Assembly (NCBI GenBank): GCA_002269645.1
Contig: NIVC01003109.1
Coordinates: 1 to 64,000 of the forward strand
Direction: 5' to 3'
DNA: 64,000 bases
DNA from: Macrostomum lignano
Taxonomy: Eukaryota
Shown: in pieces, positions 11,095-64,000 of the stretch
Layout of the letters: every line of letters starts with the position of its first letter
Numbering within the stretch: position 1 is the first letter of the stretch
The notes under the pieces: generated by a model
Told to the model about the DNA's origin: nothing
The model's input: the letters and a program-made list of their open reading frames with translations, nothing else
Database searches by the model: none
Translations under genes and position numbers: made by a program

Positions 11095-11880
11095 CTAAAC
11101 CTGTTTTATACGTAAAATTATTGTTATTGACTGCCCACCAAAACTTATTAATCTATCGCTTTCATCTACAATCCTAATATAAATTGATTGAACACTATAT
11201 TGATTTAAAGGATAATATATTGGGGTTTGAGGCGATACAATCATTTTCTCTCCAATTGGAACAGCAAGAAATGGGATTGAATAAATAATTCCACGTTGAA
11301 CCAAAACTCCGTTATCGTCTGTTATATAACCACCGTTTGAAATGTCGGTTGTTATATTAATTGTATTTACTCCACCCTCTATATTTCCAACTGTATCACC
11401 GGTGCTTGATGTGGTAACTATTCGGGAATTAAATCCAAGTATGGTTCTGAGTGAATTTGCAATTGTGAAATCAACCTGATATCCGGATCCTAGTGATAGT
11501 GTGAATCTGCCAGACGGTAAATCAACACCTATAACAATTGCTCCTGCTACCCAATCACCATTAGTTGTTAATTCTCCTTCTATATAAGCATTCAAATCAG
11601 TATAGCTATACGCTCCTGGGTTAACGCTAAATGTTGTCCAATTGGCTCCGGAATCTTTAGAATATCTAAATTGATTATTTGTTGCATTAATTAATTGAGG
11701 CATGTTGAAAACCGAAAATAGTATTAAACCTATTTGATAACTTAGGCTTTGATCAAGTTGTAATGGATCGCGCAATTGAATCCGTTGCTCGCTGGTTGTC
11801 ATTATAAACTGTAATGTTGTACTAAATTTTGAATTAGTTCGATCTACCAATTGTTTTATAGTATTTAAATTTGTAGTCAT
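11095..11880 (-). CDS. mCP: Minor capsid (penton, single jelly-roll) protein
   Basis: Size, position and motifs (NNQFRY, GAYSY.DLN, PIYYPL...IRIVDE..RLISFGG.SITIILRIK) typical of Polinton pentons. Confidence 0.85.
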   Translation of the reverse strand: MTTNLNTIKQLVDRTNSKFSTTLQFIMTTSEQRIQLRDPLQLDQSLSYQIGLILFSVFNMPQLINATNNQFRYSKDSGANWTTFSVNPGAYSYTDLNAYIEGELTTNGDWVAGAIVIGVDLPSGRFTLSLGSGYQVDFTIANSLRTILGFNSRIVTTSSTGDTVGNIEGGVNTINITTDISNGGYITDDNGVLVQRGIIYSIPFLAVPIGEKMIVSPQTPIYYPLNQYSVQSIYIRIVDESDRLISFGGQSITIILRIKQV

Positions 11881-11904
11881 TTTTATAGTGGGAAATTAAT
11901 CGTG

Positions 11905-12699
11905 CTATGTCTCTTCTTCCTCATTATCTTCTTTTATCAAATTTGTTAAAATTCTATGTTTCCTTTCTAACCTCGGATTGATATAAATATGTTTGTATTG
12001 GCTATCATCCCAAATTTTTTTACACATACTTTTAAATGGTTTTGCGTCCAATCCGGGATTAAATCTAGCGTGTATATTTTGTAAATCATAATTATCTAAA
12101 TCAAACATTACACAACAACTTGCATTCTTTTTTATAATCGATTCTAATTCTCTAAAGGATTGAGTAAGATAAAAAGCTCCAATTCCATCTCCTCTACCAC
12201 TAACAAAAATTTCCTTTTGCAATTCTTGATCACCGTCATTAATACAATCATCAAAAATAATTAGTGTTTTATCATGTTTTGGAATTTGATCATAGGCTAA
12301 TCGGGTTGATACTCTAACAGTTGGGGCTCGATCGGACGAAGTCCGCGACCCTTCGGGGCGATCGGTGATGTTTTCTGGCTGTTGTGCCATTGTTTTACAT
12401 AAATCCTCAATGTCTGCTAGATTAAATCGCGGTTCGTCATCATCCTCATATTGCTCATATGCTCTTAACATTCTAAACAAGACATCTTTTTTTAATTTGT
12501 TTTTTAATCCATGTTTAAGAAATTCATAATATTTTATTCTAGGTTTATTAGTATAAATTATTAAATTATTATAGTCTAACATTCCATCTGTTGTTAATAA
12601 ATCGTAAACAAAGTGTGTTTTTCCTTTACCCGACCCTCCGATTACTAAACAAAGAAAAGGATCATTTGGAAATATTTTATTGTGTTTTGCCTTTACCAT
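11905..12699 (-). CDS. ATP: A32/FtsK-like DNA packaging ATPase
   Basis: Walker A GGSGKGKT, Walker B LIIFDD, SGRG...YLTQ motif. Confidence 0.93.
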   Translation of the reverse strand: MVKAKHNKIFPNDPFLCLVIGGSGKGKTHFVYDLLTTDGMLDYNNLIIYTNKPRIKYYEFLKHGLKNKLKKDVLFRMLRAYEQYEDDDEPRFNLADIEDLCKTMAQQPENITDRPEGSRTSSDRAPTVRVSTRLAYDQIPKHDKTLIIFDDCINDGDQELQKEIFVSGRGDGIGAFYLTQSFRELESIIKKNASCCVMFDLDNYDLQNIHARFNPGLDAKPFKSMCKKIWDDSQYKHIYINPRLERKHRILTNLIKEDNEEEET

Positions 12700-12782
12700 T
12701 TTTAAAGAAATAATTTAAATAGGCGCGACGGTCGGAGACCTGCGCCGCTTACAGCGGGGGCGACGTGCTTTGCACTGCGACA

Positions 12783-14255
12783 CTAAAGTGGCGCGTCCCG
12801 AACAATCGTGCCATCAGCTTTAGCAATTGACATATATTCCTCTAGAAACAATACGTGGGCGTCAAGTGCCTGATTACCGGTTTTATTAATCTCTAACATA
12901 TAATTAAGTCCAATATTGGCTACGTTTTCTTTCTGTGCCGTTAGATCATAAACAACCACTGGATGAATGTTTAGAAACTCTGTGGGTGTATACTGAGGGA
13001 CGGCATACGCTTCATTTTTGGCATAATCTTGATAATATTTTATAAAATCATTAACATTATTATTTGCTATATTTAAATTTAGGGGGTCTTTAACCGGATA
13101 ATATTGATCATCAACCTGCAGGCGGATATTCTGAACATTAAACTCGTTAATAGCTGCAGCCGCATTGTCTGTTGCGGTGGCTGCTTGTTCTGCTATGGCA
13201 CCGGATTGAAGCCAATATAAATCCCCATTTGCTCTTTTACTCCTTCTATTTGTTATCTTAAACCAAACAAAAATATATCTCACCCGACGTTTTGATGTCA
13301 GTATTTGCCACTGGAATGAATCCTGGTTATTATTAATGGTTCGCATAAAATGTCGACGATTCAAATAAAATATTTCCTGATCATGCGTTAACTGATTATC
13401 GATGTGTTTTAAAAGTGGGGCTGTTACCTCAATAGTTGGTACGACTAATTGAATTGAATCTATACGAACTGCTATATCGGTTGAAATTGAGGTTCCATAA
13501 AGTATCCTAGGCTGATATCCACCAGATATTTGCAACTGTATCCCAAATTTTAATCCTTTCCATACCCGATTTGGTGAGAAAAACCCAAATAGTGGAAAGA
13601 TTGAAAAGTCCTGCTCATATGCTGTTGCTGTGGTTAAAACCGCGACTGGGAATTTATTCTGACGATCTATAAAACCAGTATTAATATCTTTTGTATTAGT
13701 CATAGTGGTTACAACTGGAACTATGTTTGTATTAAGGTAAACAATTAGCGCTGCAGTATCTGCACCGGCTGCGTTTTGTACATTAGGGAAAACTACTGCT
13801 TGACCGTTACCTTTATCCGGCATCCACCCAACATTATCACCAACTTGTTTTGATAAATAAGTATAATTTAAATGTTTCAAAACTCCATTAATCTCTGCGG
13901 GGTTTGATGATGTCTCAACCTCAGCACCATTAACAGTTAGTTGAGCTTGGGAAAAACATTTATAAAACCAATCATTTTCTATTATTATTCCGGATCGATC
14001 TGCGATATCTCCGGCTGCAAGAGCAGTTCCATCATTTCTAGTATACAACCATCTAACGCGGAAAAACCCATTTTTCATATCCAATATAGTGTTGGTTGCG
14101 CCGATGTCAAAAGTTACCGTTCCAGTAGTAAAGTTATTTGAATTATCACTTGTTGGTAGGGTATAATTTAAATCTCTTGCTCTGACCTCATTAATATACT
14201 GTCGGTGCTTTTTGAAATGAAATTTATCACTCCACATAGTTTTTGTTTCAGCCAT
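12783..14255 (-). CDS. MCP: Major capsid protein (double jelly-roll), 490 aa
   Basis: Intact beta-rich ORF beside ATPase/penton; FSQAQLTVNG.EVE, RYIFVWF, VVYDLT motifs of Polinton MCPs. Confidence 0.85.
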   Translation of the reverse strand: MAETKTMWSDKFHFKKHRQYINEVRARDLNYTLPTSDNSNNFTTGTVTFDIGATNTILDMKNGFFRVRWLYTRNDGTALAAGDIADRSGIIIENDWFYKCFSQAQLTVNGAEVETSSNPAEINGVLKHLNYTYLSKQVGDNVGWMPDKGNGQAVVFPNVQNAAGADTAALIVYLNTNIVPVVTTMTNTKDINTGFIDRQNKFPVAVLTTATAYEQDFSIFPLFGFFSPNRVWKGLKFGIQLQISGGYQPRILYGTSISTDIAVRIDSIQLVVPTIEVTAPLLKHIDNQLTHDQEIFYLNRRHFMRTINNNQDSFQWQILTSKRRVRYIFVWFKITNRRSKRANGDLYWLQSGAIAEQAATATDNAAAAINEFNVQNIRLQVDDQYYPVKDPLNLNIANNNVNDFIKYYQDYAKNEAYAVPQYTPTEFLNIHPVVVYDLTAQKENVANIGLNYMLEINKTGNQALDAHVLFLEEYMSIAKADGTIVRDAPL

Positions 14256-14289
14256 TTTTTTAAGTTAAAAAAGTTTTTTATGTTAAAAA

Positions 14290-14955
14290 ATGAGTCAATT
14301 TATGGACGTTGATGGAGAGTTAGCGATTTATAAAGAGAAGCAAAGATATTCTGATTTTGTTAGAAATTTACAAAAAAGAAAGTTAGGAATACAATTAGCT
14401 GGTGAAAGATTTGCTGCTCCTTTTGTTAATCCTATTACTGGGAAAATTAGTGAACTAGAAAAAACAGATAAAGATCTTCTGGAAAAAATTGCTAAAAATA
14501 CGGAGCCAAAAGATGAGGAGGATGAGCCGCCTGCTTATGATGTTGATCAAGCGCTATTGAGAGTTGCAGAGATTAGACGTGCAGAACGGGGTGAAGTTGA
14601 TGAATATTCGAGAGCTGCACCAACTAGTATTGCTGTGACAGATTTAGGTAATGATAATTATCGAATTGGTGGGGTTGATAAAAATCGAAATGAACTATAT
14701 AGAGAACTGGGTGGAGCATTTAATATTATTATGAACCCTAGGGTAAAATTTAACCCTGAATTATATACTAGGGATGAATTAGTAAGTGCAAAAATTTTTT
14801 ATGATGAGTTGGGAGTAAGAGCTGCTAAAAATACCAGCTTGTATAAAAGGATTGTTAATTCTATAAATAACAAACCAGCTGTTGGAGAAGGATTTAAAAC
14901 ACCACGAAAACTTGTTTTAGCTGCTGCGAAAGCTGCTGGACATACTGGAGTTTAA
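14290..14955 (+). CDS. Polinton conserved-type hypothetical (possibly PZ-like core) protein, 221 aa
   Basis: Intact ORF; N-terminal helical/basic segment and C-terminal GEGF motif; family assignment uncertain. Confidence 0.55.
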   Translation: MSQFMDVDGELAIYKEKQRYSDFVRNLQKRKLGIQLAGERFAAPFVNPITGKISELEKTDKDLLEKIAKNTEPKDEEDEPPAYDVDQALLRVAEIRRAERGEVDEYSRAAPTSIAVTDLGNDNYRIGGVDKNRNELYRELGGAFNIIMNPRVKFNPELYTRDELVSAKIFYDELGVRAAKNTSLYKRIVNSINNKPAVGEGFKTPRKLVLAAAKAAGHTGV

Positions 14956-14982
14956 TTAATTGTTAAATTTATTTTTTATAAA

Positions 14983-15552
14983 ATGGATGAAACAAAAATT
15001 TGTACTACGTGTAAAATTGAGAAACCGATGACTAAAGAATTTTTTTGTTGGAGAAATGACACAAAAAAATTTAAAAATCTTTGTCGATCTTGTGAGAAAG
15101 TTAAATGTACTATGTGGAGAATAAACAATAAAGATAAATGTAATAAATATGCAAAAAATAAATATCGCACTGATGAAAATTTCAAAAATATTAGTCTAAT
15201 TAGAGCTAAAATAACTTGGGCATTGAGAACTTTTCATGACAAACATTATATCTCCTATCTTGGTTGCACAAAAGAATTCTTTTTTGATTGGTTAAATTTC
15301 ACAAGAAATTATTATGTTCCAAAAAATTATACTGGAAAGTTAGATATTGATCATTTCATTCCCGCTTCTTCATTTAATTACAAAGACGATGATCAGATTA
15401 AAAAGTCTGAAAATTGGAGAAATAAAAGATACTTAACTAGCGTAGATAATAACTATAAAAAAGTTAAACAACCAACAATTGAAGAATTTGCGAAACAATT
15501 GGTGCTATCATGTATTTTTAAGGCTATTAAAAATGAACCAAATAGTGTTTGA
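14983..15552 (+). CDS. Free-standing HNH-type endonuclease with N-terminal Cys4 motif, 189 aa
   Basis: CTTC...CRSC, YLGCT, IDHFIP...N...N pattern resembling NCLDV/phage HNH nucleases. Confidence 0.75.
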   Translation: MDETKICTTCKIEKPMTKEFFCWRNDTKKFKNLCRSCEKVKCTMWRINNKDKCNKYAKNKYRTDENFKNISLIRAKITWALRTFHDKHYISYLGCTKEFFFDWLNFTRNYYVPKNYTGKLDIDHFIPASSFNYKDDDQIKKSENWRNKRYLTSVDNNYKKVKQPTIEEFAKQLVLSCIFKAIKNEPNSV

Positions 15553-17110
15553 AGGAGGATTTTTAGACTTACAAAAAGGATTAACGAGCTTACCACCAAT
15601 CTTTACTACTGGTAAATATACAGGGGAACTACACCTACCATCAATGAACTTCACAGGTTAACCCGTGGCCTGAGTGAGGAAGGCAATGTCCTTGCTAGTC
15701 ACTATTTGTGGCGACATCTCCAAATTGCGTGAAACCCGTCATACAGCTTCAAGTACCACTTCAAGTGAGAAATCTTTTGAAGGAACAGAGGTAACTCCTC
15801 TTCCCAAAGGTAAAAAGCTTGAAGACACGGTGGCAATGCGCAGCCAAGCTCCTAAGTATTTTAAATATAAGGAGAAGGTTCAGAGAGCAGACGGAGATGG
15901 GCGGTAATTATCGCCGCTTAAGGTGTGCTCCAGCCTCTTTCGAAAGATTGAGGGTAAACTACCCGGCACTCGCTTAGATTTAAGATTAAATCCTGACAAT
16001 ACTCCAAAATCTGATTCAATTCCAATAAATGGGATTGATTGGTTAGCATACTATCACGACTTAGCATATAGAGATGCTGACAAGAACCCGCCCGAGGAAG
16101 CATTAAGATTAAAACATGAAGCCGATCAAAAAATGATTCAAGGATTAGATAACTTGCAGGGATTATCGGTAGGTCAAAAATTAACTAGGTGGATGGTTAA
16201 AAAGATCTTGCAGTCTAAAGTTAAATTTGGTTTAGGAATTAATTACAACCAACATGGTAATAATTGTGTCGAATGTTTGTTATTAAGTGGTAGTGGGCTA
16301 AGTTATGATAAGGCTAAGGTTCTTCATAAAGAATATCGAAAACCTAAATTTTATAGAAAAATCATGAACTTCAAAAAGAATGAAATTTGGTATGCTGATT
16401 TAATGTCGATGCCGAACGAAAGAGGATATAAATATATCTTAACCATATTAGATGGTTTTACTCGATACGCGTGGGCTGTTCCTTTAAAATCCAAAAAGGG
16501 AGAGGAGGTTGCTGCTGCTTTTAGAAGTCTTGGAGAAAAAAGCGAACGTTTGTGTGTTGACGAAGGAAAAGAATTTTACAATCCTCATATGTATAAATTA
16601 TATCATTTTGAAAAAGGACAAGAAAGGAAAAAAGACGCGAATGGGGAGTATATTAATAAAATTTATTCTATTTATGGAGAGAGTAAAAACGCATTAATAG
16701 AAAGATTTAATAGAACTTTAGGTAAGAAATTATGGTTTCAGTTTAGTCTTAATGCTAACCAAAAATGGGTAAAAATATTACCAGACGTAGTGAAAGATTA
16801 TAACAATTCATATCATTCAGCTATAAAGATGACTCCTCAACAAGCTTATAACAATCCTGAAAATGTTAGGGTTACTTTTGGAAAATTTGAAAAAAAGAAA
16901 ACTAAAGATTTTAAAGTTGGTGATTCTGTTTATATCTATAAATGGAAAGATAAGTTTGAAAAGGGAAGAAAAGGATATTGGAAGATAAGTGAGAAATTTA
17001 CCATCAGTAAAGTTTTAAATACCAATCCTACAACCTATATAATTGCTGATAAGGACGGTGAAGAAATATTGGGTTCTTTTTATGAAAATCAGATATTATC
17101 TGCAAACTAA
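15533..17110 (+). CDS. INT: PLA2-like domain-retroviral-type DDE integrase fusion, 424 aa; exon 1 15533-15658, exon 2 15962-17110
   Basis: Joining the exons in frame restores ELHLPSMNFTG|PGTRL...PIN..D..AYYHDLAY (parvovirus VP1u-type PLA2); integrase D(WYADL), D(VDEGKEF), E(IERFNRTL). Confidence 0.9.
15659..15961 (+). ncRNA. Group I self-splicing intron, subgroup IC1, 303 nt
   Basis: P1 with U.G at 5' splice site; P2.1; P3 CATCTCC/GGAGATG; P AAATTGCGTGAA; Q AATGCGCAGC; P5abc; P6; R GGTTCAGAGAGCA and S AAGGTGTGCTCC (P7 GAGCA/TGCTC); P8; P9 with GAAA loop; removal restores frame and GPGT motif. Confidence 0.92.
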
Positions 17111-17120
17111 GTTCGATCAG

Positions 17121-17345
17121 TTACTTAAGACAACATGGTAGTAAATTTTTTATAACAAACAAAAACAATATTATTACAATAATTGTTACTAATATTATTA
17201 TTGACATTTGTTCAACTGTTATCAAACTTAAATTTTCATTAAGTTCATTAATCGGCACATTTCCGATATAGGAATAGTTTACCTTCATTTTTTTATATAT
17301 ATTTTTCATAATAAAAGTCGTTTCTGTTATAGAATAATAATTCAT
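17121..17345 (-). CDS. Small single-pass membrane protein, 74 aa
   Basis: C-terminal hydrophobic helix IIILVTIIVIILFLFVI followed by PCCLK; A-rich start context. Confidence 0.5.
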   Translation of the reverse strand: MNYYSITETTFIMKNIYKKMKVNYSYIGNVPINELNENLSLITVEQMSIIILVTIIVIILFLFVIKNLLPCCLK

Positions 17346-17361
17346 TTTTTAAATATTTTTT

Positions 17362-17676
17362 TCACATAAAAATTTCACTTTCATTCTCTGAATCGCTGGT
17401 TTCATATGAACTATTTGTTGATTCGGAATCTGTTGATCTAACCTCCCAATCATCCGAATTTAAATAATCTCCAAGTTGAAATATTAACTCACCCTCTTGT
17501 TCTAAATCATACATCTCATCTAGCTCTAATGGATAAAGTTTTAGGTCGTGCTTGTCATCATATTTTAAATAAACTTCATCAATTATTCCATTCAAAATAT
17601 GTTGTTTTATTATCTCTGCATTTTTAGCAACAGTCTCAAAAGTATCACTAACAGAAAAGGTGTAAACTCGGTTCAT
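17362..17676 (-). CDS. Acidic hypothetical protein, 104 aa
   Basis: ATG in TATAAAAAATG context next to right TIR; D/E/S-rich tail. Confidence 0.55.
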   Translation of the reverse strand: MNRVYTFSVSDTFETVAKNAEIIKQHILNGIIDEVYLKYDDKHDLKLYPLELDEMYDLEQEGELIFQLGDYLNSDDWEVRSTDSESTNSSYETSDSENESEIFM

Positions 17677-17693
17677 TTTTTATAACAGAAAAA

Positions 17694-18014
17694 GACCCTT
17701 CGCGCCTGCGGCGCGTGCGACGGGTTCTAGAAAGTTTGTGTGTGTTGGAGAGAGTTAGAAGCGTTGACGATACAAAATACCCAGCAAACCAAAGCGAGCG
17801 ACGAGGGCGTGTTCTCACCATTCAAAAAGAATTAATCGTTGTAAGTGTGAAATGGCCTGTTTGACCGAAATGAAGCGAGGATGAGCGAAGCGAGTTGAGC
17901 GAAGTGAAGACGAGCGAAAATGAAGGGAAACAGGCCATTTCACACTGATAAAGGGTTAAATTGTTTGCAATGGTGAGAATGGTTTGCTGGGTATTTTGTA
18001 TGGTATATACTACT
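17694..18014 (-). repeat. Right terminal inverted repeat (321 bp)
   Basis: Reverse complement of 519-835 with four extra single bases. Confidence 0.95.
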
Positions 18015-51587: not shown

Positions 51588-54500
51588 TTACGGCACGAAT
51601 CGATCAGGGGCCCGACGATTTCGCGAGCTTCGGCGCATCGGGTTGTCATTCGGTTGCTCTGGGGCATCCTGCTCATGGGTCGTTGGTGCCTGCTCTTCTC
51701 CGGCCGCCATTTGCATCGGGGGCTGTTGCACAGGCAGATTGTCATTCGCTTCCTCTTCGTCCGCTGTAAGGGCGTCCTGCTGTGGCATTGATGGGGCCAA
51801 CTGATTGGTGCTGGCCAGCTTCAGGCTCTCATCTTCTAAAATCCATGCCGTATTGTGTCCAGCAGTCATTAGAAATGTAGCCTGGCTTCCCTGAGTTGAT
51901 TTCTGCGGCTGGTAGATGACGTTGTCTCCTTGCTCGAACTGTGAGACGACCGGTACACGAAGGCGTCTACCAAGCACCAACTCGGCTGGGCACTGGCCGC
52001 GGCTTCTTGAGGAGTTGCGATGGTGCATGATCACTTTTTGCAGGTAGAATAGGAAATCCATGTGAGTTATTCTCTCCGACCATGCACGCAGCGCTGATTT
52101 AACGGTCTGCACTGCCCTTTCTGCGAGGCCGTTTGCCTGAGCATAGTAGGCGGGTGACTCCATTTTCTTCACTCCATGTGCGCGCAGCCATGCGTTGAGG
52201 CTATCGGCCACAAATTCGGGTGGATTGTCTGACACAACCAGTTCCGGCATACCAAAGCGTGCAAAGACGGCGCAGAGGCACCGCTGGACAGTGCTGGCCA
52301 CTCTGTTTTGGCAGGGAAACGCTTCTATCCAGCCAGAATGAGCGTCAACGATAATCAGTATGTCGCCAGCTCCTCTTACATGCGCCCAGTCCATGTGAAT
52401 GCGTTGGAATGGATAGTCCGGGGCGGGCCATCGATCCCTGTCGTGGCCGACACGCGGTCGTAGGCGGCTGCAGACCGGGCAGCGTTGGACAAATCGTGAC
52501 ACATCCTGTTGCATCCCAGGCCACCAGCAAGACGCTGAAAGCAGGTTGTATGAGGCCTGAATTCCAGAGTGGGTGTCATGGATCGCGTCAAAGGCAGCCC
52601 GGCGCAACCGTGGGGGGATGTAAACCCTCCTCTGCATGTAAAGAAGTCCGTTTTCCAGCGTTAGCTTTTCGGAAACGGCTTTGAAGCTTGACTCTGCCTG
52701 CGAGCAACCTTGCCAATTTCCATTGCGTACTCTTATTAAAATCTTCTGGGTGAACGGGTCTGCGTCCATTTCTGCCAAAATTCTTCCGGCCTCGATCACC
52801 GGCGATTCAAATACCACGACGTTGATAGCATCAAACGTTTCCTTGTCGTCTGCTGAAGGGTGATCAAAGCGGAGCCGAGATAAAGCGTCAGCGTGTGGGA
52901 TGTCGCGGCCTCGCACGTACTCGATGTTGAAGTCAAATTGCATGAGATGCGTAGCTTAGCGCCCGATTCTCGCCGATGTGTTCAGAGGGATGCACCGCGG
53001 AAAAGGCGAGTCAGTGGCTGATGATCTGTCTTGATTGTGAAGTGACGGCCATGAAGGAAGTGCTTCAGTCGAGCGACGGCCCAGAAGATGGCGAGGGCCT
53101 CGCGCTCAATATTTGAATAATTTTATTCGGCGGATGACAGCGTCCTTGATACAAATATTACGGGATGCCCTTCCTGAGTCACTACAGCAGCTATTGAGCT
53201 CTTTGAGGCATCCGTTGTTAGAGTCAGCTCCTTTGATAGGCTATAGGGCTGCACTATTGGCGCAGAGGCGATTTCGGCTTTGAGGTTATTAAAAGCTCGA
53301 GAGCACTCGTCGGTCCAGTCAAAGTTGACGTTGGATTTTCGCAGATGGTTAAGAGGAGCGGTCTTTCGAGCGAAGTTCGGAATCAGTCTCCCAAAGAAGT
53401 TGACTAGTCCCAGAAAGCTCGCGAGCTCAGATTTGTTAGTCGGTGCAGAAACTTGTCTGACTTTTTCAACAAGCCGATCGTCTGGCTGGATTCCGGCGGC
53501 AGAGATCTTGAATCCAAGAAAAGAGATGGAATCGGTGTAGTTGATGCACTTGGACTCGTTGATGGTGACGCGCTTTTCTTGTAGTCGGGTGCGCACCGCG
53601 GCAAGGCGCTTTTCTAGAGTAGCCGCATCTGGTGCGTGCACCAGGATGTCGTCTTGATAAATCAGCAGTCCTTTGATGTCTGACAAAATCGATTCCATAG
53701 TTCTCTGGAAGATGAACGAGGCGTTTTTCATCCCCATTTGCAGTCTGTTTACTCGGTACAGTCCACGCGACGTGTTGATGATAGAGATATCTCTGGCCGC
53801 TTCATCCAGTTCAATTTGCCAGTAGGCCGAGCGGAGGTCGACGGTGGCGAAGACTTTTGCGTTTTTCAAGCGTGAGAAAAGGATTTCTACATTGGGGATC
53901 GGATGCGAGTCGGACTTGATTTTCTCATTCACGTGCAGTGCGCTGTAATCGGCACACGTGCGCAAGGTGCCATCTTTCTTTTTCACCCACACCACGGGCG
54001 ACGCCTTGCTCACGGGTCCCTCGATGGGTTCAATTATTCCTAGCTGTTGCAAGCGGTCGAGTTCGGCGTTAATCTGCCCCTCAATTGCAATAGGCACGGA
54101 TCGAGCACGGCAGAATCTGGGTCTGGCACCGTCAACAACCTCCATGCGAGCTTTCACGCCTTTTATGGTAGGCAGTGGCTCAACTACGCGGGTGTTGTTC
54201 TGGGGCACACTTGTGGTGTTAAAGAGGTCCTCCGCGTCCAACAGATCGCGACCAAGTAAGCCATATGGTTTGCTCGAGTTGACCACAATGAGCTCTGCAG
54301 GGTGCAGATGACCTCGTAGTTCAACCGTGGTTGCCAGCTTTCCGAGTGATTTCATCACGTGACCATCAAAGGCTTCTAGCCGCCGAAAACACTTCTGCAG
54401 CGAGGGTCGACCCAGTCGTTCCCATTGCGAACTGGAGAGCACGGAGACGGAGGCGCCTGTATCGATCTGCATGTCGACGGTCTTGCCATCGATAATAAGT

Positions 54501-55408
54501 GGCTCGGTGGCCACGTTGACAGCGTGGACGGTGCCCACGTCGCTGAGATGCATCAGAGAAGTCTTTTTATGTGGCTCATTGTCTATTTCATGAGCTGATG
54601 GGTCAGTGACTTGGTGCACAGGCCGTGCAGATGATGAGCGACATACACTGGCGAAGTGATTTTTCTTACCACATTTTGAACAGAGCTTGCCAAAAGCCGG
54701 GCATTTTCCTTCCGAATGTGCTTTGCCGCAGTAACGACAGTCCTTGACACTCCGATGTCCATTTTGTCGCTGCGAGTAATGCACAGAGGCTTCGTGTGTT
54801 TGGATTGAAGGAGCTGGCTGAGTCAAATTCGCTTGAAAGTCGCTTGATTTTATGGACACAAAAGCTGTCACCTGCTCTAGGTCGCGAATAAAGTCGACAA
54901 TTTCGAGAACCGACTTGAATGATTTGATTTGAGTGGCTTCCAGAACGCGTTGTTGTTGGTTTACATTGCTGAGCCCAGAAATTAGCGCCATTTGGAGCAA
55001 TTCCTCGAGAGGACTGGTGGATGTCTTCAAATCATCAAACTTACAGTCCTTAGCGGCACGACGAAGTCGGCTAACGAAGTCAGAAATTGATTCATTTGGT
55101 GCTTGTCGCATGGCGAAGAAACGAACGCGTTCAGCGATGACCAGCTTTTCCTTTGGCTTTAGGTACGCCTGCACGGCAGTGTTGATTTCATCAAAAGTCA
55201 GGTCGGTCACGGATTTGGGGGCGATTATGCTTTGTATCTTCTCCGAGGCTGTGAGCCCGCAGTGCGCCAAAAAGTTGTCTGCGATGGTCTTCTTTCCATC
55301 ACTATCAGTCCAGTCCTTTGCTCGGGCCAGCGCTTGGAAGGCAGTCATCCAGGTTTGAGCTCGATCGGGCTTCTCCAGCGGCAGTTCGCCAAGTGACTGC
55401 GACGCCAT
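51588..55408 (-). pseudogene. gag-pol copy 1, broken in RNase H (TAA 53123-53125, frameshift ~53000, TAA 52956-52958)
   Basis: CCHC knuckles, protease IDTGAS, RT YQDD, RH TDAS...EREAL, IN HHCC and D,D35E. Confidence 0.92.
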
Positions 55409-55624
55409 TGTTGTGTTTTGTGCTTTGATTCTGTGCTGAGCCGAAAGCTGTTATAACGAGAGCGTAGCTTAAGTTGAATGTATATTTTATTTAACGATAT
55501 AAGTAACGGCAAGCCTTTATAGAGTCAGAGTCAGTCGGTAGCTGTTTGGGACACAGACAAATAAATTAACGCTGGGGCAACGACTGAAAATAAAAGTACA
55601 TTGGATTCGGATCGGTATACAACA
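55409..55624 (-). repeat. LTR 2 (shared)
   Basis: Copy of LTR 1 at +4201; PBS-like TGGCG follows on minus strand. Confidence 0.92.
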
Positions 55625-55788
55625 TGTCCCCCTTCGAGGGAATGAGAACTGCAACGGAAAAGCGTTGGTGGTTATTGATTAGTGGGTTTGAGTATGAACG
55701 GGTGAGCTTAGGGAGCTTGGTGCTTAACAAAGTAACGGCGAATTCGTTGAAAGTTTGGAATTTAATCAGCGTCTATACTGTTCAGCAA

Positions 55789-58700
55789 TTACGGCACGAA
55801 TCGATCAGGGGCCCGACGATTTCGCGAGCTTCGGCGCATCGGGTTGTCATTCGGTTGCTCTGGGGCATCCTGCTCATGGGTCGTTGGTGCCTGCTCTTCT
55901 CCGGCCGCCATTTGCATCGGGGGCTGTTGCACAGGCAGATTGTCATTCGCTTCCTCTTCGTCCGCTGTAAGGGCGTCCTGCTGTGGCATTGATGGGGCCA
56001 ACTGATTGGTGCTGGCCAGCTTCAGGCTCTCATCTTCTAAAATCCATGCCGTATTGTGTCCAGCAGTCATTAGAAATGTAGCCTGGCTTCCCTGAGTTGA
56101 TTTCTGCGGCTGGTAGATGACGTTGTCTCCTTGCTCGAACTGTGAGACGACCGGTACACGAAGGCGTCTACCAAGCACCAACTCGGCTGGGCACTGGCCG
56201 CGGCTTCTTGAGGAGTTGCGATGGTGCATGATCACTTTTTGCAGGTAGAATAGGAAATCCATGTGAGTTATTCTCTCCGACCATGCACGCAGCGCTGATT
56301 TAACGGTCTGCACTGCCCTTTCTGCGAGGCCGTTTGCCTGAGCATAGTAGGCGGGTGACTCCATTTTCTTCACTCCATGTGCGCGCAGCCATGCGTTGAG
56401 GCTATCGGCCACAAATTCGGGTGGATTGTCTGACACAACCAGTTCCGGCATACCAAAGCGTGCAAAGACGGCGCAGAGGCACCGCTGGACAGTGCTGGCC
56501 ACTCTGTTTTGGCAGGGAAACGCTTCTATCCAGCCAGAATGAGCGTCAACGATAATCAGTATGTCGCCAGCTCCTCTTACATGCGCCCAGTCCATGTGAA
56601 TGCGTTGGAATGGATAGTCCGGGGCGGGCCATCGATCCCTGTCGTGGCCGACACGCGGTCGTAGGCGGCTGCAGACCGGGCAGCGTTGGACAAATCGTGA
56701 CACATCCTGTTGCATCCCAGGCCACCAGCAAGACGCTGAAAGCAGGTTGTATGAGGCCTGAATTCCAGAGTGGGTGTCATGGATCGCGTCAAAGGCAGCC
56801 CGGCGCAACCGTGGGGGGATGTAAACCCTCCTCTGCATGTAAAGAAGTCCGTTTTCCAGCGTTAGCTTTTCGGAAACGGCTTTGAAGCTTGACTCTGCCT
56901 GCGAGCAACCTTGCCAATTTCCATTGCGTACTCTTATTAAAATCTTCTGGGTGAACGGGTCTGCGTCCATTTCTGCCAAAATTCTTCCGGCCTCGATCAC
57001 CGGCGATTCAAATACCACGACGTTGATAGCATCAAACGTTTCCTTGTCGTCTGCTGAAGGGTGATCAAAGCGGAGCCGAGATAAAGCGTCAGCGTGTGGG
57101 ATGTCGCGGCCTCGCACGTACTCGATGTTGAAGTCAAATTGCATGAGATGCGTAGCTTAGCGCCCGATTCTCGCCGATGTGTTCAGAGGGATGCACCGCG
57201 GAAAAGGCGAGTCAGTGGCTGATGATCTGTCTTGATTGTGAAGTGACGGCCATGAAGGAAGTGCTTCAGTCGAGCGACGGCCCAGAAGATGGCGAGGGCC
57301 TCGCGCTCAATATTTGAATAATTTTATTCGGCGGATGACAGCGTCCTTGATACAAATATTACGGGATGCCCTTCCTGAGTCACTACAGCAGCTATTGAGC
57401 TCTTTGAGGCATCCGTTGTTAGAGTCAGCTCCTTTGATAGGCTATAGGGCTGCACTATTGGCGCAGAGGCGATTTCGGCTTTGAGGTTATTAAAAGCTCG
57501 AGAGCACTCGTCGGTCCAGTCAAAGTTGACGTTGGATTTTCGCAGATGGTTAAGAGGAGCGGTCTTTCGAGCGAAGTTCGGAATCAGTCTCCCAAAGAAG
57601 TTGACTAGTCCCAGAAAGCTCGCGAGCTCAGATTTGTTAGTCGGTGCAGAAACTTGTCTGACTTTTTCAACAAGCCGATCGTCTGGCTGGATTCCGGCGG
57701 CAGAGATCTTGAATCCAAGAAAAGAGATGGAATCGGTGTAGTTGATGCACTTGGACTCGTTGATGGTGACGCGCTTTTCTTGTAGTCGGGTGCGCACCGC
57801 GGCAAGGCGCTTTTCTAGAGTAGCCGCATCTGGTGCGTGCACCAGGATGTCGTCTTGATAAATCAGCAGTCCTTTGATGTCTGACAAAATCGATTCCATA
57901 GTTCTCTGGAAGATGAACGAGGCGTTTTTCATCCCCATTTGCAGTCTGTTTACTCGGTACAGTCCACGCGACGTGTTGATGATAGAGATATCTCTGGCCG
58001 CTTCATCCAGTTCAATTTGCCAGTAGGCCGAGCGGAGGTCGACGGTGGCGAAGACTTTTGCGTTTTTCAAGCGTGAGAAAAGGATTTCTACATTGGGGAT
58101 CGGATGCGAGTCGGACTTGATTTTCTCATTCACGTGCAGTGCGCTGTAATCGGCACACGTGCGCAAGGTGCCATCTTTCTTTTTCACCCACACCACGGGC
58201 GACGCCTTGCTCACGGGTCCCTCGATGGGTTCAATTATTCCTAGCTGTTGCAAGCGGTCGAGTTCGGCGTTAATCTGCCCCTCAATTGCAATAGGCACGG
58301 ATCGAGCACGGCAGAATCTGGGTCTGGCACCGTCAACAACCTCCATGCGAGCTTTCACGCCTTTTATGGTAGGCAGTGGCTCAACTACGCGGGTGTTGTT
58401 CTGGGGCACACTTGTGGTGTTAAAGAGGTCCTCCGCGTCCAACAGATCGCGACCAAGTAAGCCATATGGTTTGCTCGAGTTGACCACAATGAGCTCTGCA
58501 GGGTGCAGATGACCTCGTAGTTCAACCGTGGTTGCCAGCTTTCCGAGTGATTTCATCACGTGACCATCAAAGGCTTCTAGCCGCCGAAAACACTTCTGCA
58601 GCGAGGGTCGACCCAGTCGTTCCCATTGCGAACTGGAGAGCACGGAGACGGAGGCGCCTGTATCGATCTGCATGTCGACGGTCTTGCCATCGATAATAAG

Positions 58701-59609
58701 TGGCTCGGTGGCCACGTTGACAGCGTGGACGGTGCCCACGTCGCTGAGATGCATCAGAGAAGTCTTTTTATGTGGCTCATTGTCTATTTCATGAGCTGAT
58801 GGGTCAGTGACTTGGTGCACAGGCCGTGCAGATGATGAGCGACATACACTGGCGAAGTGATTTTTCTTACCACATTTTGAACAGAGCTTGCCAAAAGCCG
58901 GGCATTTTCCTTCCGAATGTGCTTTGCCGCAGTAACGACAGTCCTTGACACTCCGATGTCCATTTTGTCGCTGCGAGTAATGCACAGAGGCTTCGTGTGT
59001 TTGGATTGAAGGAGCTGGCTGAGTCAAATTCGCTTGAAAGTCGCTTGATTTTATGGACACAAAAGCTGTCACCTGCTCTAGGTCGCGAATAAAGTCGACA
59101 ATTTCGAGAACCGACTTGAATGATTTGATTTGAGTGGCTTCCAGAACGCGTTGTTGTTGGTTTACATTGCTGAGCCCAGAAATTAGCGCCATTTGGAGCA
59201 ATTCCTCGAGAGGACTGGTGGATGTCTTCAAATCATCAAACTTACAGTCCTTAGCGGCACGACGAAGTCGGCTAACGAAGTCAGAAATTGATTCATTTGG
59301 TGCTTGTCGCATGGCGAAGAAACGAACGCGTTCAGCGATGACCAGCTTTTCCTTTGGCTTTAGGTACGCCTGCACGGCAGTGTTGATTTCATCAAAAGTC
59401 AGGTCGGTCACGGATTTGGGGGCGATTATGCTTTGTATCTTCTCCGAGGCTGTGAGCCCGCAGTGCGCCAAAAAGTTGTCTGCGATGGTCTTCTTTCCAT
59501 CACTATCAGTCCAGTCCTTTGCTCGGGCCAGCGCTTGGAAGGCAGTCATCCAGGTTTGAGCTCGATCGGGCTTCTCCAGCGGCAGTTCGCCAAGTGACTG
59601 CGACGCCAT
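55789..59609 (-). pseudogene. gag-pol copy 2, same lesions
   Basis: Translated ORFs identical to copy 1. Confidence 0.92.
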
Positions 59610-59825
59610 TGTTGTGTTTTGTGCTTTGATTCTGTGCTGAGCCGAAAGCTGTTATAACGAGAGCGTAGCTTAAGTTGAATGTATATTTTATTTAACGATA
59701 TAAGTAACGGCAAGCCTTTATAGAGTCAGAGTCAGTCGGTAGCTGTTTGGGACACAGACAAATAAATTAACGCTGGGGCAACGACTGAAAATAAAAGTAC
59801 ATTGGATTCGGATCGGTATACAACA
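59610..59825 (-). repeat. LTR 3 (shared)
   Basis: Identical to LTR 2. Confidence 0.92.
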
Positions 59826-59989
59826 TGTCCCCCTTCGAGGGAATGAGAACTGCAACGGAAAAGCGTTGGTGGTTATTGATTAGTGGGTTTGAGTATGAAC
59901 GGGTGAGCTTAGGGAGCTTGGTGCTTAACAAAGTAACGGCGAATTCGTTGAAAGTTTGGAATTTAATCAGCGTCTATACTGTTCAGCAA

Positions 59990-62900
59990 TTACGGCACGA
60001 ATCGATCAGGGGCCCGACGATTTCGCGAGCTTCGGCGCATCGGGTTGTCATTCGGTTGCTCTGGGGCATCCTGCTCATGGGTCGTTGGTGCCTGCTCTTC
60101 TCCGGCCGCCATTTGCATCGGGGGCTGTTGCACAGGCAGATTGTCATTCGCTTCCTCTTCGTCCGCTGTAAGGGCGTCCTGCTGTGGCATTGATGGGGCC
60201 AACTGATTGGTGCTGGCCAGCTTCAGGCTCTCATCTTCTAAAATCCATGCCGTATTGTGTCCAGCAGTCATTAGAAATGTAGCCTGGCTTCCCTGAGTTG
60301 ATTTCTGCGGCTGGTAGATGACGTTGTCTCCTTGCTCGAACTGTGAGACGACCGGTACACGAAGGCGTCTACCAAGCACCAACTCGGCTGGGCACTGGCC
60401 GCGGCTTCTTGAGGAGTTGCGATGGTGCATGATCACTTTTTGCAGGTAGAATAGGAAATCCATGTGAGTTATTCTCTCCGACCATGCACGCAGCGCTGAT
60501 TTAACGGTCTGCACTGCCCTTTCTGCGAGGCCGTTTGCCTGAGCATAGTAGGCGGGTGACTCCATTTTCTTCACTCCATGTGCGCGCAGCCATGCGTTGA
60601 GGCTATCGGCCACAAATTCGGGTGGATTGTCTGACACAACCAGTTCCGGCATACCAAAGCGTGCAAAGACGGCGCAGAGGCACCGCTGGACAGTGCTGGC
60701 CACTCTGTTTTGGCAGGGAAACGCTTCTATCCAGCCAGAATGAGCGTCAACGATAATCAGTATGTCGCCAGCTCCTCTTACATGCGCCCAGTCCATGTGA
60801 ATGCGTTGGAATGGATAGTCCGGGGCGGGCCATCGATCCCTGTCGTGGCCGACACGCGGTCGTAGGCGGCTGCAGACCGGGCAGCGTTGGACAAATCGTG
60901 ACACATCCTGTTGCATCCCAGGCCACCAGCAAGACGCTGAAAGCAGGTTGTATGAGGCCTGAATTCCAGAGTGGGTGTCATGGATCGCGTCAAAGGCAGC
61001 CCGGCGCAACCGTGGGGGGATGTAAACCCTCCTCTGCATGTAAAGAAGTCCGTTTTCCAGCGTTAGCTTTTCGGAAACGGCTTTGAAGCTTGACTCTGCC
61101 TGCGAGCAACCTTGCCAATTTCCATTGCGTACTCTTATTAAAATCTTCTGGGTGAACGGGTCTGCGTCCATTTCTGCCAAAATTCTTCCGGCCTCGATCA
61201 CCGGCGATTCAAATACCACGACGTTGATAGCATCAAACGTTTCCTTGTCGTCTGCTGAAGGGTGATCAAAGCGGAGCCGAGATAAAGCGTCAGCGTGTGG
61301 GATGTCGCGGCCTCGCACGTACTCGATGTTGAAGTCAAATTGCATGAGATGCGTAGCTTAGCGCCCGATTCTCGCCGATGTGTTCAGAGGGATGCACCGC
61401 GGAAAAGGCGAGTCAGTGGCTGATGATCTGTCTTGATTGTGAAGTGACGGCCATGAAGGAAGTGCTTCAGTCGAGCGACGGCCCAGAAGATGGCGAGGGC
61501 CTCGCGCTCAATATTTGAATAATTTTATTCGGCGGATGACAGCGTCCTTGATACAAATATTACGGGATGCCCTTCCTGAGTCACTACAGCAGCTATTGAG
61601 CTCTTTGAGGCATCCGTTGTTAGAGTCAGCTCCTTTGATAGGCTATAGGGCTGCACTATTGGCGCAGAGGCGATTTCGGCTTTGAGGTTATTAAAAGCTC
61701 GAGAGCACTCGTCGGTCCAGTCAAAGTTGACGTTGGATTTTCGCAGATGGTTAAGAGGAGCGGTCTTTCGAGCGAAGTTCGGAATCAGTCTCCCAAAGAA
61801 GTTGACTAGTCCCAGAAAGCTCGCGAGCTCAGATTTGTTAGTCGGTGCAGAAACTTGTCTGACTTTTTCAACAAGCCGATCGTCTGGCTGGATTCCGGCG
61901 GCAGAGATCTTGAATCCAAGAAAAGAGATGGAATCGGTGTAGTTGATGCACTTGGACTCGTTGATGGTGACGCGCTTTTCTTGTAGTCGGGTGCGCACCG
62001 CGGCAAGGCGCTTTTCTAGAGTAGCCGCATCTGGTGCGTGCACCAGGATGTCGTCTTGATAAATCAGCAGTCCTTTGATGTCTGACAAAATCGATTCCAT
62101 AGTTCTCTGGAAGATGAACGAGGCGTTTTTCATCCCCATTTGCAGTCTGTTTACTCGGTACAGTCCACGCGACGTGTTGATGATAGAGATATCTCTGGCC
62201 GCTTCATCCAGTTCAATTTGCCAGTAGGCCGAGCGGAGGTCGACGGTGGCGAAGACTTTTGCGTTTTTCAAGCGTGAGAAAAGGATTTCTACATTGGGGA
62301 TCGGATGCGAGTCGGACTTGATTTTCTCATTCACGTGCAGTGCGCTGTAATCGGCACACGTGCGCAAGGTGCCATCTTTCTTTTTCACCCACACCACGGG
62401 CGACGCCTTGCTCACGGGTCCCTCGATGGGTTCAATTATTCCTAGCTGTTGCAAGCGGTCGAGTTCGGCGTTAATCTGCCCCTCAATTGCAATAGGCACG
62501 GATCGAGCACGGCAGAATCTGGGTCTGGCACCGTCAACAACCTCCATGCGAGCTTTCACGCCTTTTATGGTAGGCAGTGGCTCAACTACGCGGGTGTTGT
62601 TCTGGGGCACACTTGTGGTGTTAAAGAGGTCCTCCGCGTCCAACAGATCGCGACCAAGTAAGCCATATGGTTTGCTCGAGTTGACCACAATGAGCTCTGC
62701 AGGGTGCAGATGACCTCGTAGTTCAACCGTGGTTGCCAGCTTTCCGAGTGATTTCATCACGTGACCATCAAAGGCTTCTAGCCGCCGAAAACACTTCTGC
62801 AGCGAGGGTCGACCCAGTCGTTCCCATTGCGAACTGGAGAGCACGGAGACGGAGGCGCCTGTATCGATCTGCATGTCGACGGTCTTGCCATCGATAATAA

Positions 62901-63810
62901 GTGGCTCGGTGGCCACGTTGACAGCGTGGACGGTGCCCACGTCGCTGAGATGCATCAGAGAAGTCTTTTTATGTGGCTCATTGTCTATTTCATGAGCTGA
63001 TGGGTCAGTGACTTGGTGCACAGGCCGTGCAGATGATGAGCGACATACACTGGCGAAGTGATTTTTCTTACCACATTTTGAACAGAGCTTGCCAAAAGCC
63101 GGGCATTTTCCTTCCGAATGTGCTTTGCCGCAGTAACGACAGTCCTTGACACTCCGATGTCCATTTTGTCGCTGCGAGTAATGCACAGAGGCTTCGTGTG
63201 TTTGGATTGAAGGAGCTGGCTGAGTCAAATTCGCTTGAAAGTCGCTTGATTTTATGGACACAAAAGCTGTCACCTGCTCTAGGTCGCGAATAAAGTCGAC
63301 AATTTCGAGAACCGACTTGAATGATTTGATTTGAGTGGCTTCCAGAACGCGTTGTTGTTGGTTTACATTGCTGAGCCCAGAAATTAGCGCCATTTGGAGC
63401 AATTCCTCGAGAGGACTGGTGGATGTCTTCAAATCATCAAACTTACAGTCCTTAGCGGCACGACGAAGTCGGCTAACGAAGTCAGAAATTGATTCATTTG
63501 GTGCTTGTCGCATGGCGAAGAAACGAACGCGTTCAGCGATGACCAGCTTTTCCTTTGGCTTTAGGTACGCCTGCACGGCAGTGTTGATTTCATCAAAAGT
63601 CAGGTCGGTCACGGATTTGGGGGCGATTATGCTTTGTATCTTCTCCGAGGCTGTGAGCCCGCAGTGCGCCAAAAAGTTGTCTGCGATGGTCTTCTTTCCA
63701 TCACTATCAGTCCAGTCCTTTGCTCGGGCCAGCGCTTGGAAGGCAGTCATCCAGGTTTGAGCTCGATCGGGCTTCTCCAGCGGCAGTTCGCCAAGTGACT
63801 GCGACGCCAT
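59990..63810 (-). pseudogene. gag-pol copy 3, same lesions
   Basis: Translated ORFs identical to copy 1. Confidence 0.92.
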
Positions 63811-64000
63811 TGTTGTGTTTTGTGCTTTGATTCTGTGCTGAGCCGAAAGCTGTTATAACGAGAGCGTAGCTTAAGTTGAATGTATATTTTATTTAACGAT
63901 ATAAGTAACGGCAAGCCTTTATAGAGTCAGAGTCAGTCGGTAGCTGTTTGGGACACAGACAAATAAATTAACGCTGGGGCAACGACTGAAAATAAAAGTA
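63811..64000 (-). repeat. LTR 4 (truncated at window end)
   Basis: Identical to LTR 2 over the visible part. Confidence 0.9.

Follow-up and report, generated by a model that had tools for sequence, protein, structure and literature searches.

A candidate selfish nuclease-plus-intron module in Polintons of Macrostomum lignano

Collaborative and intronless homing are known in phages (PMC2988022) and have been raised, speculatively, for the helicases of Polinton-like viruses (PLVs; PMC11296320). In the available text of these and related reports, which include the Endo VII-like F-CphI of 2009, a free-standing nuclease gene lies by a conserved gene that carries an ORF-less intron, and this combination has been proposed as the precursor of mobile introns (PMC2988022, PMC11296320, PMC6083498). 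The locus that we describe here has the same layout and differs from the phage systems in several respects: its host is an integrated eukaryotic virus-like element, its nuclease slot swaps three nuclease superfamilies, free-standing and intron-encoded states of one nuclease occur in one genome, and the nuclease tree leans, not firmly, towards the reverse of the proposed order, with the free-standing state derived.

Adintoviruses, or animal Polintons with PLA2X, share with our element a PLA2-like gene, a protein-primed family B DNA polymerase (pPolB), an integrase and an ATPase; elements bearing PLA2 are described there as animal-tropic, and the available text of that report makes no mention of endonucleases, restriction or group I introns (PMC8502044), whereas in our element PLA2 and integrase are fused and an intron interrupts the PLA2 part. 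HNH domains fused to Polinton polymerases are known from the accessible part of another account (10.1101/2023.08.22.554363). Nuclear group I introns are described, in the available text of PMC3679873, as occurring in microbial eukaryotes and there in rRNA genes alone. Protist PLVs are a recent departure from this rule: the accessible text on these notes ORF-less introns of 309-376 nt, and HNH and GIY-YIG genes, locates the introns in a short gene that lacks annotation, in elements of cryptophytes, rhizarians and chlorophytes, and ties no nuclease to them (PMC12220804), whereas the intron here lies in the PLA2 gene of an adintovirus-type element. A literature search of openly accessible main texts returned no group I intron in a Polinton PLA2 gene, no Eco47II-like intron nuclease and no Polinton site loss of the kind reported below; tables S11-S12 of PMC12220804 could bear on this novelty.

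The intron studied here sits in a protein gene of an integrated virus, with at least 165 intron-core matches in one 764-Mb genome that is probably animal nuclear. The system resembles mobile group I introns with homing endonucleases, including those of giant viruses and the one with the PD-(D/E)xK nuclease I-Ssp6803I, in that one of its families (family 2) carries an ORF in a peripheral loop of the intron and has intron-less alleles alongside. Known homing endonucleases use long sites; the nuclease here groups instead with type II restriction enzymes that have 5-7-bp sites, and the element seems to have rid itself of that short site. The likeness to the type II enzymes Eco47II, AvaII and EcoO109I extends to Pfam family, fold and an E..D..ExK-type motif, and their GGNCC-core site matches the junction at which the intron is inserted, whereas the protein here has 167 aa, has no methylase neighbour and is encoded in or beside a Polinton intron. 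On balance we lean towards a selfish nuclease-plus-intron module in the Polinton, in which the Eco47II-like nuclease would be the original and best-supported partner and an HNH nuclease a second homing nuclease.

The Polinton and its interrupted PLA2-integrase gene

The window, by which we mean the whole 64,000-nt stretch analysed (positions 1 to 64,000 of contig NIVC01003109.1), contains a 17.5-kb Polinton of what we call family 1 with all the hallmarks of the group: pPolB, rve integrase, A32 ATPase, terminal inverted repeats and 6-bp target duplication (Table 1). One of its genes we take, from its size and the gene order, to encode the major capsid protein. The initial annotation described an intact HNH-like ORF that overlaps the start of the intron-bearing gene and ends about 106 bp short of the intron; the frame is open, shares 20 nt with that gene (ATG at 15533), and lies 106 nt from the insert, exactly as described. 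Once the intron is removed, PLA2 and integrase form one reading frame (15533-17110). In intron-less copies of family 2, whose PLA2-integrase is about 60% identical to that of family 1, the gene is a single 452-aa ORF, and in a third family the PLA2 and integrase genes are separate and divergent. Elsewhere in the window, a perfect 30-bp hairpin lies just inside the left terminal repeat (881-975), a Gypsy-like pol region occurs three times in tandem on the minus strand (51588-63852; 775-aa and 455-aa frames), and a ribosomal protein S2/uS5-type frame without introns, probably a retrocopy, lies among satellites (32019-33059).

Table 1. Features of the Polinton and its nuclease slot, in window coordinates.
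Feature	Position	Strand	Remarks
Polinton/adintovirus-type element, family 1	519..18014	.	AGTAGT ends, 6-bp target-site duplication, terminal inverted repeats
Protein-primed family B DNA polymerase	3796..6126	+	PF03175, E 5.8e-19
A32-type packaging ATPase	11905..12699	-	PF04665, E 9.8e-7
Probable major capsid protein	12783..14255	-	From size and gene order, without Pfam confirmation
221-aa gene, function unassigned	14290..14955	+	Left edge of nuclease slot
11-nt leader motif ahead of slot ORF	14960..14970	+	Occurs once in window
HNH/endonuclease-VII-like free-standing ORF, 189 aa	14983..15552	+	Allele H1 of six
PLA2-integrase gene, exon 1, 42 codons	15533..15658	+	Diversity among copies peaks in last 60 nt
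ORF-less group I intron, type A, terminal A	15659..15961	+	RF00028
Exon 2: remaining PLA2 domain, in frame with rve integrase	15962..17110	+	

Natural intron-less alleles fix the boundaries of the intron, which separates the Gly codon from the Pro codon in the PLA2 loop, and its 303 nt hold no nuclease ORF, as had been annotated. The insert scores 62.2 bits against Rfam RF00028 (cut-off 50, E 7.6e-14; scanned as L001 2250-2553) in small-region scans, while a scan of the whole 17.7 kb missed it and a four-locus scan missed the introns of L253 and L067, both of which small scans found. The catalytic core (P3-P7 with the G-binding site) is present, with RF00028 over its cut-off. P1 pairs 15653-15658 with 15668-15672 and has the U.G pair at the 5' splice site, the exon-end U lying opposite the guide G; P7 pairs 15885-15889 with 15926-15930, and its strands are identical in 61 of 71 type-A copies in a pattern reading that offset the rest. 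A short hairpin at 15698-15712 marks the place where family 2 carries its nuclease ORF. The terminal omega-G is missing from the window intron, which ends in A, and this is a natural polymorphism: with the same P7 guanosine site, the last nucleotide is A in 50 and G in 21 of the 71 type-A introns. A terminal A with correct ligation is reported, in the available text, for the coral ND5-717 intron (PMC6545197). The exon joint across the intron was absent from contigs of four sequencing runs, none recorded as RNA, which give no evidence either way.

Several intron variants accompany type A. A second intron, type B (L061-L084, e.g. L067 1667-1990), reaches 30.5 bits against RF00028, under the cut-off, and uses the same 5' site, with both sides of the P1 pairing at that site changed; in all 24 copies exon 2 appears to start with an altered loop, one codon longer. 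The '3-93' exon-2 matches, considered for a time as intron-less alleles, were rejected since this second intron is present in them. Type-A introns of 333 nt (e.g. L022) carry a 30-nt peripheral-loop insertion that resembles the same loop of the family-2 intron, a hint of possible exchange between families 1 and 2, and one ORF-less family-2 intron (L208 722-1445, G000:C1464) contains an internal tandem array of units of about 30 nt and has lost its 3' core.

Occupants of the slot and the HNH gene

The HNH assignment rests on family membership and not on a solved fold. The window allele matches PHROG 1035 endonuclease VII at E 1e-3, and sibling alleles do so down to 2e-11; the window allele itself has no Pfam match, and PF01844 matches weakly in 6 of 29 relatives. 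Across these 29 sequences C7/C10/C34/C37, which form an N-terminal CxxC..CxxC module, and D123-H124 are invariant and N147 and N156 are conserved at 90% or more, so that the DH..N..N catalytic residues of an HNH (His-Me finger) endonuclease are present in the viral family to which the window ORF belongs. The named clusters nearest to the ORF in the atlas are HNH, at 0.87-0.89. The AlphaFold model is unreliable in the nuclease half (pLDDT <50 at 115-134 and 141-189); a fold search returned nothing significant, and neither did a profile search against PDB. One relative sits within a group I intron in the Rpb2 gene of a giant virus, and the HNH family therefore has intron-encoded members. That gene (L175, IMGVR_UViG_3300042470_000579) contains a segment that resembles an intein, and two or more group I introns interrupt it. 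The HNH relative lies in one of these; another is followed by a NUMOD4/HNH-like ORF.

The six HNH alleles are 57-100% identical. Their dN/dS ranges from 0.16 to 0.54 for the nuclease half and from 0.15 to 1.17 for the N-terminal half, where divergence is far faster than in core genes, and the ORF is intact in 56 of 74 copies, much as the exon-2/integrase frame is at the same loci (57 of 73); together these values argue for a maintained, diversifying nuclease.

The genome holds well over 100 family-1 copies. We classified 114 of them, 98 from a first batch, from which 13 duplicates, 7 loci of family 2 and 2 that lacked exon 1 had been removed, and 16 from a second batch of 20, the other 4 having no readable junction. 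The slot is occupied by HNH in 87, by an Eco47II-like nuclease in 25 and by another ORF in 2, counts that are not independent, as sibling copies are related, and that favour HNH through the first 30 loci, which were chosen by likeness to the window. Intron A accompanies 68 of the HNH copies and 18 of the Eco47II-like copies, intron B 16 and 7, and no intron 3 and 0, respectively. HNH is associated neither with the presence of the intron (Fisher p 1.0, n=96) nor with its type (p 0.40, n=93): 27 of 111 intron-bearing copies lack an HNH gene, and a genome-wide search by exact pattern, which diverged alleles could escape, found three intron-less family-1 alleles, all with HNH, intact in two. No HNH copy was seen inside this intron, or at a family-2 locus, among the loci read.

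These distributions bear on the proposal of the initial annotation that the HNH gene and the intron form a two-part selfish module. In its strict form, HNH cuts the intron-less junction, the intron gives immunity and the fixed pair spreads together. The geometry is that of phage collaborative homing in the available text (PMC2988022), the intron is found in 84 of 87 HNH copies, the family has an intron-encoded member in a giant virus, and a GIY-YIG gene elsewhere provides an analogue (see below). A fixed HNH-intron pair is nonetheless not seen in the copies, since there is no association and intron-less alleles carry HNH, and we think the strict form unlikely. Self-immunity specific to each allele is conceivable, since both HNH alleles and flanks are divergent in the intron-less carriers with an intact HNH. 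One result favours it: in 9 of 9 copies the H4 allele is tied to a single block of exon 1, intron B and 30 nt of exon 2 (0-0.7% diversity), outside which the 50 nt upstream and the sequence beyond differ by 5-6%. This block would suggest co-movement of HNH and intron; the room for crossing over is small, and four Eco47II-like copies and two H2 copies have the same block. H2 and H3 occur on many exon haplotypes, from which the HNH target is unreadable.

The general idea of a nuclease-plus-intron module holds up, with another nuclease as its best-supported partner. In addition to the giant-virus intron and the H4 block, it draws support from an equivalent arrangement that involves two further nuclease superfamilies. 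In an independent Polinton-like virus (IMGVR_UViG_3300027939_000003), the one PLA2 relative found in IMG/VR and hence the one contig on which this recurrence is based, an ORF-less group I intron (52 bits) lies at the same PLA2 codon boundary, and a free-standing GIY-YIG gene (PF01541, E 5.8e-8) ends 23 nt before the PLA2 start. When IMG/VR was scanned with exon 2, the Eco47II-like alignment or an intron-core pattern, no relatives emerged, and the 36 pattern matches were all due to chance. That three nuclease superfamilies occur beside one intron site argues that the position is not chance.

The Eco47II-like nuclease and loss of its candidate site

The other main occupant of the slot is a 167-aa PD-(D/E)xK ORF. 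The free-standing form falls below the Pfam Eco47II cut-off (E 4e-5, 23.8 against 25.9), which relatives and the intron-encoded copy (PF09553, E 7e-6) pass, and its predicted structure (pLDDT 90) has as top folds EcoO109I (Z 9.7, 166 aligned, rmsd 3.8) and AvaII (Z 6.5). EcoO109I cuts RGGNCCY and AvaII GGWCC (PMC7337904), and the site of Eco47II is GGNCC (PMC10305163), each according to the available text; sharing a fold with the first two does not fix the specificity of the Eco47II-like protein.

In family 2 the Eco47II-like ORF is encoded in the intron, at the same site, at 19 of 20 loci; there it fills the loop of a hairpin whose counterpart in the window's intron is short. It lies likewise inside an intron at this site in the metagenome contig Ga0224502_10072777, and several database relatives read on into the intron core. 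On the intron-less alleles read it is absent (0 of 3 in family 1, 0 of 21 in family 2). Its dN/dS is 0.11-0.35 and it is as often intact as the integrase frame; both it and the HNH nuclease are under purifying selection. In the nuclease tree the free-standing form nests, with moderate support (92/84 and 93/75), among intron-encoded ones, and the 11-nt leader motif of the window also precedes the intron-encoded ORF of family 2. Together the nesting and the common leader suggest that the free-standing state may be derived from the intron-encoded one, a direction to which the data lean without being firm. No methylase was found among the 17 ORFs of the window element. At a further locus (L141, G000:C1063) a truncated free-standing Eco47II-like gene is followed by two RING-like zinc-finger ORFs in place of PLA2.

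The window element (542-17990, 17,449 bp) contains no GGNCC against 16.1 expected; none of 2000 codon shuffles reached zero (mean 12.6), and its proteins contain no Gly-Pro dipeptide against 8.6 expected. The word arises in this element only at the intron-less junction. It is likewise missing from three further intron-bearing family-1 copies, and two intron-less copies have the junction and one more. GGWCC is the most depleted 5-mer in four of five family-1 and family-2 sets and is lacking from both family-2 sets (0 against 10.9 and 0 against 10.8 expected), whereas the controls show a milder depletion (host flank, 19 against 34.8; distant third family, 3 against 5.1). GGSCC is also low in family 1, at 0 against 3.8, and in the Polinton-like virus with the GIY-YIG gene, where no Eco47II-like nuclease was seen, GGWCC is at 0 against 3.8 in 9.8 kb.

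The Gly codon at the junction is GGC in 21 of 21 intron-less family-2 alleles read and GGG in the third family. GGC or GGG is used by five of six intron-less lineages, a handful of lineages and not independent copies; in the window element these codons make up 19% of Gly codons. We had considered that a Gly-Pro pair makes the site unavoidable; this is true for GGNCC only, and the intron-less survivors mostly use GGC or GGG. This choice of codons appears to fit GGWCC with synonymous escape better than GGNCC, and the disappearance of a 5-mer from the whole element suggests that the Eco47II-like nuclease recognises a short site. Only a divergent subfamily, H6, keeps GGTCC intact at its intron-less junction and has GGWCC at 2 against 10.2. 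For HNH, no 5- or 6-mer is missing from family 1 alone; CCWGG (3 against 12.7 in family 1) was dropped as its target because it is also low in host DNA (26 against 55.5).

A proposed course of events and its rivals

The direct support for targeting of the junction appears to fall to the Eco47II-like nuclease, which is absent from the window's copy. The sequences establish the anatomy of the locus, the distribution of alleles, the missing site and the selection on both nucleases; cleavage, target sequences, homing and the order of events we infer from these patterns, as follows. The position before the PLA2-integrase gene would be a homing-endonuclease slot. Where sibling elements meet in one cell, the Eco47II-like nuclease would cut any genome with GGWCC or GGNCC, and selection may have purged these words along the Polintons until the Gly-Pro codons of the PLA2 loop were nearly the only target. 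The intron would split this remaining site and protect its carrier, and repair from an intron-bearing sibling would copy the intron, together with the nuclease if adjacent or internal. With the intron nearly fixed in family 1, HNH alleles would then have taken most slots. HNH most likely cuts exon sequence near the insertion site and would be held off by local changes and by the intron, and its conversion of a sibling would drag the intron along. We place its target in the exon flanks because diversity among copies peaks there: it reaches 17% over the last 60 nt of exon 1 and the first 30 nt of exon 2, compared with about 5% for the integrase. Such a peak, which includes amino-acid changes in the PLA2 loop, fits escape from, or co-conversion by, nucleases that cut at this place.

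We hold it an even question whether, more specifically, a type II restriction enzyme that recognises 5 bp turned into the homing endonuclease of a Polinton group I intron without a methylase. Its gene would have existed in intron-encoded and in free-standing form, and HNH nucleases, or GIY-YIG ones elsewhere, would now compete for its slot. No methylase would be needed, and the short word could serve as a near-unique target, because the viral population purged the site. A 5-bp cutter without a methylase should cut host DNA too, which counts against this model; expression of the nuclease late in the lytic cycle only would be one guess at how the host tolerates it. Since homing needs two element genomes per cell, the pattern would be indirect evidence for virus-like replication and recombination of these Polintons. 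A single genome contains the intron-less, ORF-less, intron-encoded and free-standing states, which makes both the origin of mobile introns and a link between restriction enzymes and homing endonucleases directly testable.

The nucleases of the slot might instead be viral weapons against competing elements, a helper virus or late host DNA, with site loss and intron as self-protection and the intron spreading by selection only, a reading to which we give rather little credence. The short-site restriction fold would suit such a role, as would a relative (P0116) that is a 542-aa fusion of a C5 DNA methylase and the Eco47II-like nuclease family, the element-wide loss of sites, and purifying selection after near-fixation of the intron. 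Against it, family 2 and an unrelated sample have the nuclease within the intron, as a mobile intron would; nucleases of three unrelated folds lie beside one site; and mosaic blocks end near the splice site. Weapon and homing roles are compatible and need not be exclusive.

It is very improbable that HNH is a passenger, or a replication or packaging gene, that came to lie by the intron through chance, in a gap that has few genes and recombines. In favour of this, a PLV is reported in the available text to have HNH genes next to its packaging genes (PMC12220804), and copies here recombine every few hundred bases. Yet HNH is dispensable, as 27 family-1 copies and every family-2 locus read do without it, is swapped with other nucleases at one position, and has a fast-diverging N-terminal half.

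Two family-1 loci (L083, L107) contain a third slot ORF of 155 aa, without a family, that is similar to a portion of the 221-aa gene upstream; the remnant of an HNH gene comes after it.
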